Sequence record: KT454806
DNA length: 64,000 nt
Reading direction: 5' to 3' (one strand)
Origin: Escherichia phage SUSP2
Shown: positions 59,856-60,386 of the stretch, piece after piece
Numbering within the stretch: position 1 is the first letter of the stretch
Layout: the number at the start of each line of letters is the position of its first letter
Made by a program: the position numbers and the translations under genes
The notes under the pieces: generated by a model
What the model saw: the letters and a program-made list of their open reading frames with translations, nothing else
The model's database searches: none
Told to the model about the DNA's origin: nothing

Positions 59856-59916
59856 GTTTAATGGTCAAGACAACACTAGTAAGCCATCTGAATACATGTT
59901 AACAGGTGTACGAAAG

Positions 59917-59984
59917 TCGGAAAGTTGCTGAAGGTTAGCTACCTTCGATAGTAAGTAGGTTCGACTCCTACCTTGACTGCCAAA
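59917..59984 (+). ncRNA. tRNA-like element with canonical T-arm and CCA end but irregular 5' half
   Basis: gtagg-ttcgact-cctac plus cttgact-g-cca; no clean D or anticodon arm. Confidence 0.3.
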
Positions 59985-60124
59985 TAGTTAGCAGATTACT
60001 AAGACGACCTTAGCGGGTCTTCCTGTAGGGAGGTGGTCTGTATCTCATGTTTTCCAGAACATGTAAATAATCTGAGAAGGGGCTTTACAGTGTTGTGATA
60101 ATACGGTAAGCTTCGAATTGTATT

Positions 60125-60207
60125 ATGGGACGATGTTAAGACTCTAAGGCATGAGCAACGGCCTCCAAAACCGTTTCAAAGGGGTTCAAATCCTCCGTCC
60201 CATGCCA
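60125..60207 (+). tRNA. tRNA-Trp (CCA), 83 nt with enlarged D region
   Basis: Acceptor atgggac/gtcccat, anticodon loop ctccaaa. Confidence 0.5.
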
Positions 60208-60386
60208 AAAATATACCCCTTAATTCCGAGGAAAGGGTTATCGGTTCTTAAACAATAAGAATCGTGTGCGCAAACTCATATATTTGCTTGGGTGGCTTAA
60301 GGAATACGTAACAGTGGAAGGTATACATGAAACTGTTTGCAGAGGTTCAAGTCCTCTGAGGGGTGCCAAATTTATAGATTTCTTTG

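Follow-up and report, generated by a model that had tools for sequence, protein, structure and literature searches.

A conserved candidate tRNA-mimic RNA gene and a second tRNA-like element in the tRNA array of Escherichia phage SUSP2

Background

In the transfer RNA (tRNA) array of Escherichia phage SUSP2, a gap of 532 nucleotides (nt) between tRNA-Arg(TCT) (59779-59855) and tRNA-Ser(TGA) (60388-60476) holds two elements that end in a perfect tRNA 3' half and have irregular or distant 5' halves. What are these elements, here called element 1 and element 2? The window analyzed was a 64,000-nt stretch of the phage genome (sequence record KT454806; one strand, 5' to 3'), to which all unlabelled coordinates refer. 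Its source is an Ounavirinae (FelixO1-like) myovirus, and the nearest record is the Suspvirus Escherichia phage mistaenkt (approximately 98 % identity over the common parts). An earlier note on the same DNA had offered three answers, namely tRNAs with insertions or introns, degenerate tRNAs or tRNA-mimic RNAs. Our own cautious preference is that both elements are tRNA-mimic small RNA genes and not decoding tRNAs, and the case was found to be much firmer for element 1.

The array (58111-63578) consists of 25 co-oriented tRNAs called by ARAGORN, all with an encoded CCA (25/25), and the Rfam matches agree. The gap is filled by four units, which lie in tRNA-like slots: element 1 (59863-59982), a 142-nt spacer, a tRNA-Trp (60125-60207) and element 2 (60215-60368).

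T-arm modules and their 5' partner strands

A motif consisting of a stem of 5 base pairs (bp) with a TTCRANN loop, 7 nt, one discriminator nucleotide and CCA was searched for. The scan recovered 22 of the 25 called tRNAs and four uncalled modules (59955-59982, 60341-60368, 60180-60207 and 58722-58749). The first two are the perfect T-arm/acceptor/G-CCA modules that the earlier note had reported, and both were found where it had placed them. The module at 60180-60207, absent from that note, is part of a non-canonical tRNA-Trp that lies between, not over, the elements.

59955-59971, + strand: element 1 T-arm, GTAGG-TTCGACT-CCTAC
59972-59982, + strand: element 1 3' end, acceptor strand CTTGACT (59972-59978), discriminator G (59979) and CCA (59980-59982)
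60341-60357, + strand: element 2 T-arm, AGAGG-TTCAAGT-CCTCT
60358-60368, + strand: element 2 3' end, acceptor strand GAGGGGT (60358-60364), discriminator G (60365) and CCA (60366-60368)

The sole seven-of-seven partner of GAGGGGT in the gap is ACCCCTT at 60215-60221 (6 Watson-Crick pairs and 1 G-U pair), so that the earlier statement of a single fully complementary 5' strand for element 2, with a span of 154 nt, held. In element 1, CTTGACT pairs best with GGTCAAG (59863-59869), also with 6 Watson-Crick pairs and 1 G-U pair, and the nearer strand AGTCGGA (59915-59921) offers 4 Watson-Crick pairs, 2 G-U pairs and 1 mismatch. Each of the two elements has a single good 7-bp partner strand. The boundaries 59917-59984 that had been proposed for element 1 were not supported, as a diverged homologue in Yersinia phage P778 keeps the distant strand and not the near one (see below).

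Both partner strands begin 7 nt past the preceding CCA and have T at position -1; 12 of the 25 called tRNAs begin 2-8 nt past the previous CCA, and the leader TTTAAT, recurrent in the array, precedes the element 1 start at 59863. In composition-matched random sequence, a 7-bp partner that includes no more than one G-U pair was found anywhere in the gap in about 3 % of cases, and at 4-9 nt past the previous CCA in 0.2 % (element 1) and 0.1 % (element 2). The partner strands occupy the tRNA start slot, and we concluded that the T-arm/acceptor pattern is real and not due to chance.

Structure and conservation of element 1

The features of element 1 are as follows.

59863-59982, + strand: element 1, a 120-nt tRNA-like RNA with acceptor stem, expanded core, T-arm and G73-CCA
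59863-59869, + strand: 5' acceptor strand GGTCAAG, pairing with CTTGACT at 59972-59978
59884-59909, + strand: hairpin H1, CCATCTG, 12-nt loop, CAGGTGT; compensatory changes C-G to U-A and G-C to C-G (Suspvirus, Mooglevirus)
59910-59928, + strand: segment ACGAAAGTCGGAAAGTTGC, near-invariant, mostly unpaired in the supported model and containing a GG
59925-59954, + strand: hairpin H2, (TTGCT)GAAGGT, loop TAGCT, ACCTTC(GAT)AGTAA; compensatory changes U-A to G-C and A-U to G-C
59955-59982, + strand: T-arm, 3' acceptor strand, G and CCA; T-stem invariant in 13 relatives

When the close relatives were aligned (13 sequences, 11 of them distinct), the 5' strand GGTCAAG and the T-stem were invariant, and most substitutions fell in H1 and H2 and were compensatory. 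Four pairs in these hairpins had changed on both sides, and 96 % of the alignment cells were paired, compared with 35-54 % when the partners were slid. The only change in the T-arm was G to A at a T-loop purine in Moogle. An A to G change in the 3' acceptor strand of three relatives retains the pair as U-G, and CHB7 has A as discriminator. Segment ACGAAAGTCGGAAAGTTGC showed one G to A change in 2 of the 13 relatives; its GG possibly docks on the T-loop as a substitute for a D-loop.

H2 stands at the position of an anticodon arm or a variable arm, and its 5-nt loop, UAGCU, is also present in P778 and in approximately 50 IMG/VR contigs. As the closing (sixth) pair of H2 covaries from U-A to G-C, the loop is one of 5 nt and not a 7-nt anticodon loop.

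Element 1 was found, without annotation in any case (0/23), in 23 phage records; those whose taxonomy was read belong to Suspvirus or Mooglevirus. The literature yielded no description of these RNAs in Ounavirinae. In Felixounavirus sensu stricto it is absent, and tRNA-Arg joins the same downstream sequence at a junction within the common TGCCA, which looks like the gain or loss of one tRNA-sized unit.

The homologue in Yersinia phage P778 is diverged and lies in the same place, 5 nt past tRNA-Arg(TCT). Its acceptor stem (GGTCTGT/GCAGACC) has three pairs changed on both sides, all still paired, and it has a hairpin ATGGG-UAGCU-CCCAT and a T-arm, but not the near strand AGTCGGA. Folded alone, this sequence adopts the outline of element 1. 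Model R1, built from the close relatives, scored it at 34.8 bits (E-value about 4e-6), compared with at most 26 bits for true tRNAs. With P778 added to the alignment, 10 pairs had changed on both sides, three of them in the acceptor stem, and none of 500 shuffles reached this number.

Ordinary tRNAs with other boundaries, which the earlier note had named as the finding that would speak against it, are called over neither element by ARAGORN and Rfam. No match to RF00005 was obtained at an E-value of 10 or below, and no credible call was given by Rfam at its gathering thresholds or by ARAGORN in default, intron (-i) and lowered-threshold (-ps, -ps80) modes. Both elements have the 7-bp acceptor stem, discriminator and CCA of a canonical tRNA and its 5-bp T-stem with a TTCRANN loop. 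Two nt past the acceptor strand, in the place of the D-arm, there are 55-95 nt of other structure, and neither element has a 5-bp/7-nt anticodon arm (with U33 and a purine at 37), the loops being 5 nt in element 1 and 5 and 16 nt in element 2. Since it has neither a D-arm nor a 7-nt anticodon loop, element 1 would not be a decoding tRNA.

Among the three answers of the earlier note, a tRNA-mimic fits element 1 best, as this element is conserved, has covarying helices and tRNA-like ends and lacks an anticodon loop. A tRNA with an insertion or intron found no support, and a degenerate tRNA is still to be considered for element 2 only. Judged on conservation and covariation, we take element 1 to be a real, conserved tRNA-mimic RNA gene with its true 5' end at 59863.

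A wider family with UAGCU hairpins in uncultivated viruses

IMG/VR was scanned for the H2-to-T-arm motif with the pattern GGGTAGCTCCC, 6-20 nt, AGGTTCRA. Of the 64 loci obtained, about 50 carry one tRNA-like RNA of approximately 95 nt with the consensus AGTCAGG-TTGGATACAAG-GTCGG TTCGAGT CCGAT-GGAAG-GTCAT GGA TGAC-GGG UAGCU CCC-TGTA-GAGAGG TTCGATT CCTCTC-CTGACT-AC. Its helices covary, with seven pairs changed on both sides (alignment A6). The family has no Rfam entry, and 50,697 isolate phage genomes contained no copy of it. When ARAGORN was run on five of the contigs, the RNA was called in one, implausibly, as a 94-nt 'tRNA-Pro'.

The acceptor stems of this family ((A/G)GTCAGG/CCTGACT) and of element 1 (GGTCAAG/CTTGACT) agree at 6 of 7 positions on each side and the single difference is compensatory; by our own calculation, a match of at least 6 of 7 has a chance of about 0.001. 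Both RNAs have a hairpin of the type GGG-UAGCU-CCC just 5' of the T-arm, which Moogle-type element 1 and P778 have in exactly this form and which reads GGU-UAGCU-ACC in the window copy. In addition, ATACAAGGTCGG of the family resembles segment ACGAAAGTCGGAAAGTTGC of element 1 (ATACAAGGTCGG compared with GTACGAAAGTCGG), and T at -1 is common to both. The likenesses in the acceptor, in ATACAAGGTCGG and GTACGAAAGTCGG and at position -1 lie outside the search pattern.

The two RNAs also differ. At the anticodon-arm position the family has a hairpin with a 7-nt loop, GTCGG-TTCGAGT-CCGAT, whereas element 1 has GTCGGAAAGTTGC and no such hairpin. Conversely, the family lacks H1 and an encoded CCA and has A as discriminator, and element 1 has H1, CCA and G. 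Model R2, built from the family, gave 30-34 bits for Moogle-type element 1, 22.7 bits for P778, 22.1 bits for the window copy and 26.9 bits for the best ordinary tRNA. It is likely, although not proven, that element 1 is homologous to the approximately 95-nt family as a diverged member. If so, it would be a derivative without the 7-nt-loop hairpin of the family and with H1 gained.

In other contigs, the UAGCU hairpin stands where tRNA-like genes have their variable arm. One such gene (L093 156-236) ends in CCA and appears to have an anticodon arm with CAT.

The contigs of the approximately 95-nt family often have two copies, or a second odd gene of approximately 92-99 nt that ARAGORN calls 'tRNA-???' with a 4-nt anticodon (L060 2005-2096; L109 2238-2336; L083 ~480-575 and 915-1010). 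This suggests that these uncultivated large phages hold paralogous sets of non-canonical tRNA-like genes. Between tRNA-Glu and tRNA-Ser of an unrelated viral contig (IMGVR_UViG_3300009068_004973; L052 ~505-760) lies a tRNA-like gene whose acceptor is likewise AGTCAGG/CCTGACT-AC; its start (GCGGAATGGTAGACGC) resembles a D-arm, and it contains an insertion of approximately 170 nt without an Rfam intron match and a canonical T-arm.

Element 2 and the exchanged cassette

Element 2 has the same general plan, and its features are given below.

60215-60368, + strand: element 2, a candidate 154-nt tRNA-like RNA with acceptor ACCCCTT/GAGGGGT, 119-nt core, T-arm and G73-CCA
60242-60264, + strand: 9-bp hairpin, CGGTTCTTA, loop AACAA, TAAGAATCG, in the minimum free energy and centroid folds of the single sequence
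60310-60337, + strand: hairpin AACAGT, 16-nt loop, ACTGTT, from the single-sequence fold, 3 nt before the T-arm at the anticodon- or variable-arm position
60388-60476, + strand: tRNA-Ser(TGA), a variant allele by ARAGORN and by comparison with relatives

The element lies in a cassette (~60208-60478) in which element 2 and tRNA-Ser replace the 'AAGTCTTATTAG + tRNA-Ser' found in 30 of the 31 relatives compared; CHB7 has a third tRNA-Ser allele. The window allele of tRNA-Ser is at most 78 % identical to any known copy. In phiSUSP1 and Sf19, the slot after tRNA-Trp is occupied by HNH endonuclease genes.

No relatives of element 2 were obtained by blastn against phage isolates to an E-value of 10, by exact patterns in IMG/VR, by two patterns in JGI metagenomes, or in GTDB genomes and in E. 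coli genomes and plasmids. When IMG/VR was entered through the window tRNA-Ser allele, only unrelated phages and no element 2 relative were seen. Exact-protein look-ups of the open reading frames (ORFs) near or overlapping element 2 returned only contigs that end before it. A decayed homing-endonuclease gene was also considered for element 2 and rejected, as tblastn with the HNH and PD-(D/E)XK proteins of the relatives' slot was negative.

Because its ends are exact, the sequence argues for element 2 being an intact unit imported from an unsampled phage. It is placed with element 1 by architecture alone and is an uncertain candidate of the same kind.

Two further observations were made on this cassette. 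The 10-mer TGGAAGGTAT (60315-60324) is shared by element 2 and a member of the approximately 95-nt family (L112), where it follows the inner hairpin; it was dismissed as a link between the two, being compatible with chance (~1-2 %). The common Ounavirinae allele of tRNA-Ser(TGA) (L001 ~3222-3310 and 29 relatives) ends in ...CTACCGCCTAATAAG, that is G-CCT and not G-CCA, whereas the window allele and nearly all other tRNAs of the array encode CCA.

Proposed function and alternative explanations

The following signals and genes surround the elements.

59518-59546, + strand: sigma-70-like promoter, TTGACA-17-TATAGT, matching 11 of 12 consensus positions and the top site of the region, by consensus match alone
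59779-59855, + strand: canonical tRNA-Arg(TCT) (ARAGORN; Rfam tRNA, 61.8 bits), adjoining element 1 upstream
60492-60507, + strand: terminator-like hairpin with T-rich tail, a pattern match whose sequence is kept in relatives

On the + strand, no terminator-like site was predicted between the promoter-like site and the hairpin. Since these two consensus matches bracket the unit and none lies between, a single transcript is suggested: the promoter at 59518 is likely the start of a transcript with tRNA-Arg, element 1, tRNA-Trp, element 2 and tRNA-Ser, and the hairpin likely the end of this sub-operon. The leader of approximately 225 nt downstream of the promoter-like site contains a 16-bp inverted repeat (AACATTCTAAAGGGTA / TACCCTTTAAAATGTT, 94 % complementary, 59712-59775) directly upstream of tRNA-Arg.

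Each element retains a 12-bp acceptor/T-arm stack with G73-CCA, and the D-arm/anticodon-arm region is replaced by a private core. An acceptor/T-arm stack with RCCA is the minimal substrate of bacterial RNase P, of the 3' exonucleases that stop at CCA and of the CCA-adding enzyme; for this reason we expect that the elements would be excised and stabilized like tRNAs. In the proposed sequence of events, the elements would be co-transcribed with tRNA-Arg, tRNA-Trp and tRNA-Ser, RNase P would cut at 59862/59863 and 60214/60215, and the 3' ends would be trimmed to CCA. The products would be stable RNAs of approximately 120 and 154 nt, the flanking tRNAs being freed as well. The core would be the effector, and as a best guess, it would bind a tRNA-binding factor of the host or the phage or act as a decoy for one.

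A broader idea, which we offer as speculation and hold to be unlikely, is that element 1, possibly element 2 and the approximately 95-nt UAGCU RNAs belong to a widespread unrecognized class of phage tRNA mimics. These would enter host tRNA maturation by way of their acceptor/T-arm/CCA stack, and their cores would decoy or inhibit immune nucleases that target tRNAs, or other host factors that bind tRNAs.

Several points weigh against the tRNA-mimic interpretation. The acceptor covariation of element 1 comes from one distant sequence, P778, whose alignment was fitted to the model and which has no encoded CCA, ending in GTCT. The fold energy z-scores are modest (element 1, -0.75; element 2, -1.92; P778, -1.36). 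As the UAGCU motif belonged to the search pattern, the hairpin match with the approximately 95-nt family is partly circular and not independent, and the separation of element 1 from true tRNAs by R2 is modest, the window copy scoring below the best tRNA. Element 2 has no homologue in any collection searched and lies at a recombination hot spot. No homology to T4 rnaC or rnaD beyond the T-loop was detected, the pairwise scores being at shuffle level and nhmmer returning nothing. Finally, RNAalifold favours an alternative pairing of AGTCGGA with the T-loop in element 1. This pairing was rejected: it is broken by the G to A change in the T-loop of Moogle, is missing in P778 and would destroy the invariant canonical T-arm.

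That the elements are decoding tRNAs with large insertions or introns, removed or tolerated, is very improbable. It is true that they resemble tRNAs in acceptor stem, T-arm, discriminator and CCA and that the neighbouring tRNA-Trp shows this lineage to tolerate an insertion after the acceptor strand. ARAGORN in intron mode (-i), silent at normal thresholds, calls ends at 59982 and 60364 when the thresholds are lowered to 80 % (-ps80), but these calls are implausible, as they begin in tRNA-Arg or engulf tRNA-Trp in a 267-nt 'intron'. Removal of a single insert leaves no cloverleaf, no group I or II intron family of Rfam matched at an E-value of 10 or below, the UAGCU loop with its covarying closing pair leaves element 1 without a 7-nt-loop hairpin, and all 20 amino acids would already be covered by the array when the Trp and Tyr genes are counted. 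We would be just as surprised if element 1 were a short D-arm-less tRNA (~59915-59982) with AGTCGGA as 5' strand and GAAGG-TTAGCTA-CCTTC as anticodon arm. AGTCGGA can indeed pair with CTTGACT at 6 of 7 positions, the alignment of the window copy to model R2 takes this form, and an 82-nt D-arm-less 'tRNA-OTHER' occupies the tRNA-Arg slot of REP8-type Felixounavirus. The near pairing is nevertheless inferior to the distant one, P778 lacks the near strand and keeps the distant one with compensatory changes, the covarying sixth pair of H2 fixes the loop at 5 and not 7 nt, and the leader of the RNase P type, TTTAAT, stands ahead of 59863 with none ahead of 59915.

Recombination scars or tRNA pseudogenes are a more serious, if still less probable, possibility, in which endonuclease-driven exchange at T-arms would have left orphan 3' halves that are tolerated; we regard this as plausible for element 2 and unlikely for element 1. 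It is favoured by the HNH genes in the slot after tRNA-Trp, by the replacement of the segment of 30 relatives and the third allele of CHB7, by the failure to find relatives of element 2 in any collection, by its fold z-score of only -1.9, and by the tRNA-Arg slot, which occurs in three alternative states that return to homology within the T-arm. T4 SegB cuts a T-loop motif within tRNA genes (PMC13096335), and cutting of this type would account for the breaking and rejoining of array cassettes at the 3' ends of tRNAs, but not for the perfect end pairing in the slot. Such a 7-bp partner at the exact tRNA start, together with an intact G-CCA, would not be expected of a scar, the substitutions in element 1 preserve its structure across genera, which argues for selection, and element 2 shows no trace of endonuclease coding sequence. 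The stacks might also be mere punctuation, giving RNase P sites that separate the flanking tRNAs while the released RNAs have no function. The elements do lie between tRNAs in one predicted transcript, and RNase P separates the tRNAs of polycistronic operons in E. coli. We think this improbable, as Felixounavirus sensu stricto manages without element 1, other neighbours in the array stand 2-8 nt apart without such spacers, and conserved, covarying H1 and H2 with the UAGCU loop would be unnecessary for a cleavage site. The tRNA-mimic interpretation is the one that we retain.

Other features of the tRNA array

Two further features lie between the elements.

60125-60207, + strand: non-canonical tRNA-Trp(CCA), called only by the mitochondrial models of ARAGORN (-mt); Rfam tRNA-Sec, 22.4 bits (weak)
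59983-60124, + strand: 142-nt spacer between element 1 and tRNA-Trp, with more than 90 % identity across Felixounavirus, Suspvirus and Mooglevirus

In the tRNA-Trp, the acceptor stem is of 8 bp and the T-stem of 4 bp, a short D-stem is preceded by an invariant extra linker (ATGTTAAG), and a C.A mismatch at 31-39 amounts to a 9-nt anticodon loop. The gene also has A1-U72, G73 and the anticodon CCA, which are identity elements of E. coli tRNA-Trp for tryptophanyl-tRNA synthetase, and it encodes CCA. Among 11 distinct homologues (from Felixounavirus, Suspvirus, Mooglevirus, Pectobacterium phages and Yersinia phage P778), 99.5 % of the alignment cells were paired, seven pairs had changed on both sides and the anticodon was invariant; the gene is conserved in every Ounavirinae genus sampled. 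On this covariation, 60125-60207 is in our judgement an odd but real tRNA-Trp(CCA) gene that standard tools miss.

A class II tRNA-Tyr(GTA) at 58662-58749 was likewise not called by ARAGORN and gave only 22.8 bits with Rfam tRNA. Its acceptor is GCGTCGT/ACGGCGC and its anticodon arm GGTGA-CTGTAAA-TCACT; the variable arm is long, and a T-arm and A-CCA complete the gene. T4 rnaD ends in the same 11 nt (ACGGCGCACCA) as this tRNA-Tyr. Together, tRNA-Trp and tRNA-Tyr would complete the coverage of the 20 amino acids by the array.

A D-arm-less tRNA-like gene of 82 nt occupies the tRNA-Arg(TCT) slot of many Felixounavirus genomes (Escherichia phage REP8; L003 652-733). It begins with CGGGGCG and a 7-nt connector, continues with GCTGT-CTTCTAA-ACAGC and 23 nt of variable region, and closes with a T-arm and A-CCA. 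It is annotated as 'tRNA-OTHER' in REP8, is mostly unannotated elsewhere and was not called by ARAGORN.

The spacer at 59983-60124 is more than 90 % conserved in the Ounavirinae of E. coli, Salmonella and Citrobacter and has no ORF there. At its position, Pectobacterium phage Arno18 (L046 779-892) and Yersinia phage P778 (L047 768-893) have an annotated ORF of 37-41 amino acids (orf69 and ORF028, respectively); the DNA translation of the Arno18 ORF starts with MKKKFAICFPSG.

Another spacer element, CAGAAGACC(N3-4)T(A/T)CAGCAA ... GGTCTGG, occurs between tRNAs in four copies (58277-58350, 58438-58503, 58895-58972 and 58985-59112). The fourth copy surrounds a partial tRNA-like piece (59004-59057; Rfam tRNA, 31.3 bits) with the T-arm GAAGG-TTCGATT-CCTTC and without acceptor or CCA. 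These copies may be a further small-RNA family or a set of processing signals. A search for repeats joining the cores of elements 1 and 2 to other spacers of the array found T-arm similarity alone.

Significance

To our knowledge, the non-tRNA RNAs of phage tRNA arrays have been neglected since T4 RNAC and RNAD were described. Element 1 provides a conserved, structured and unannotated RNA family, with a defined model and boundaries, in the well-studied coliphage genera Suspvirus and Mooglevirus, and probably links it to a much larger, undescribed family in uncultivated phages. In addition, the tRNA-Trp and tRNA-Tyr genes would correct the published tRNA counts of these phages. Phage tRNA arrays are now regarded as counter-defence loci against tRNA-cleaving immunity such as PARIS, retron effectors and Septu (PMC11555353, PMC13096335). 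If a class of tRNA mimics with decoy cores were real, it would add an RNA-mimic arm to this role. Should the elements be inert, the result would still document how endonuclease-driven cassette exchange shapes tRNA arrays.

Comparison with known RNA classes

Genes of tRNAs with group I introns, e.g. the cyanobacterial tRNA-Leu(UAA), likewise have acceptor strands that are far apart in the DNA. In contrast to these, the elements match no intron core, their inserts of 85-119 nt are too short and their 'exons' form no D-arm or anticodon arm. D-arm-less (mitochondrial-type) and class II tRNAs are similar in the missing D-stem and in a further hairpin that separates the position of the anticodon arm from the T-arm, but they decode with a 7-nt anticodon loop, compared with 5 nt in element 1 and 16 or 5 nt in element 2.

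The tRNA-like domain of transfer-messenger RNA (tmRNA) has the same topology as the elements (5' acceptor strand, large insertion, T-arm, 3' strand and CCA). However, the G3-U70 alanine identity pair of tmRNA is absent (U3-A70 in element 1 and C3-G70 in element 2), and the elements are less than half its size. Identification as tmRNA was rejected: ARAGORN was negative even at the 80 % threshold, there is no tag reading frame and the Rfam tmRNA matches are noise. YrlA, a bacterial Y-RNA-like RNA, is a noncoding partial tRNA mimic of which versions have been reported in phages. Unlike in the elements, its tRNA-like part is internal and its ends form the Ro-binding stem; the sole match to Rfam YrlA was noise over tRNA-His and tRNA-Phe (19.9 bits, compared with a gathering threshold of 69).

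The closest comparison is with RNAC (species 1, 139 nt) and RNAD (species 2, 119 nt) of phage T4, to which our proposal is likened as these are non-tRNA stable RNAs of a phage tRNA cluster; their roles are unknown (PMC3014915). RNAC has no encoded CCA and an imperfect closing stem, RNAD has no canonical T-arm, and the internal domains of both are unrelated to those of the elements. Short colinear motifs shared with rnaD (AAGTCG, CTGAWGGTT and GAGTAAG) were found not to be significant. In RNAC, a canonical T-arm (CCGGG-TTCGAAT-CCCGG) adjoins the 3' end, which can pair with the 5' end. The elements, in turn, lie within a phage tRNA cluster and are co-oriented with its tRNAs, and the T4 RNAs directly follow tRNA-Arg(UCU), as element 1 does.

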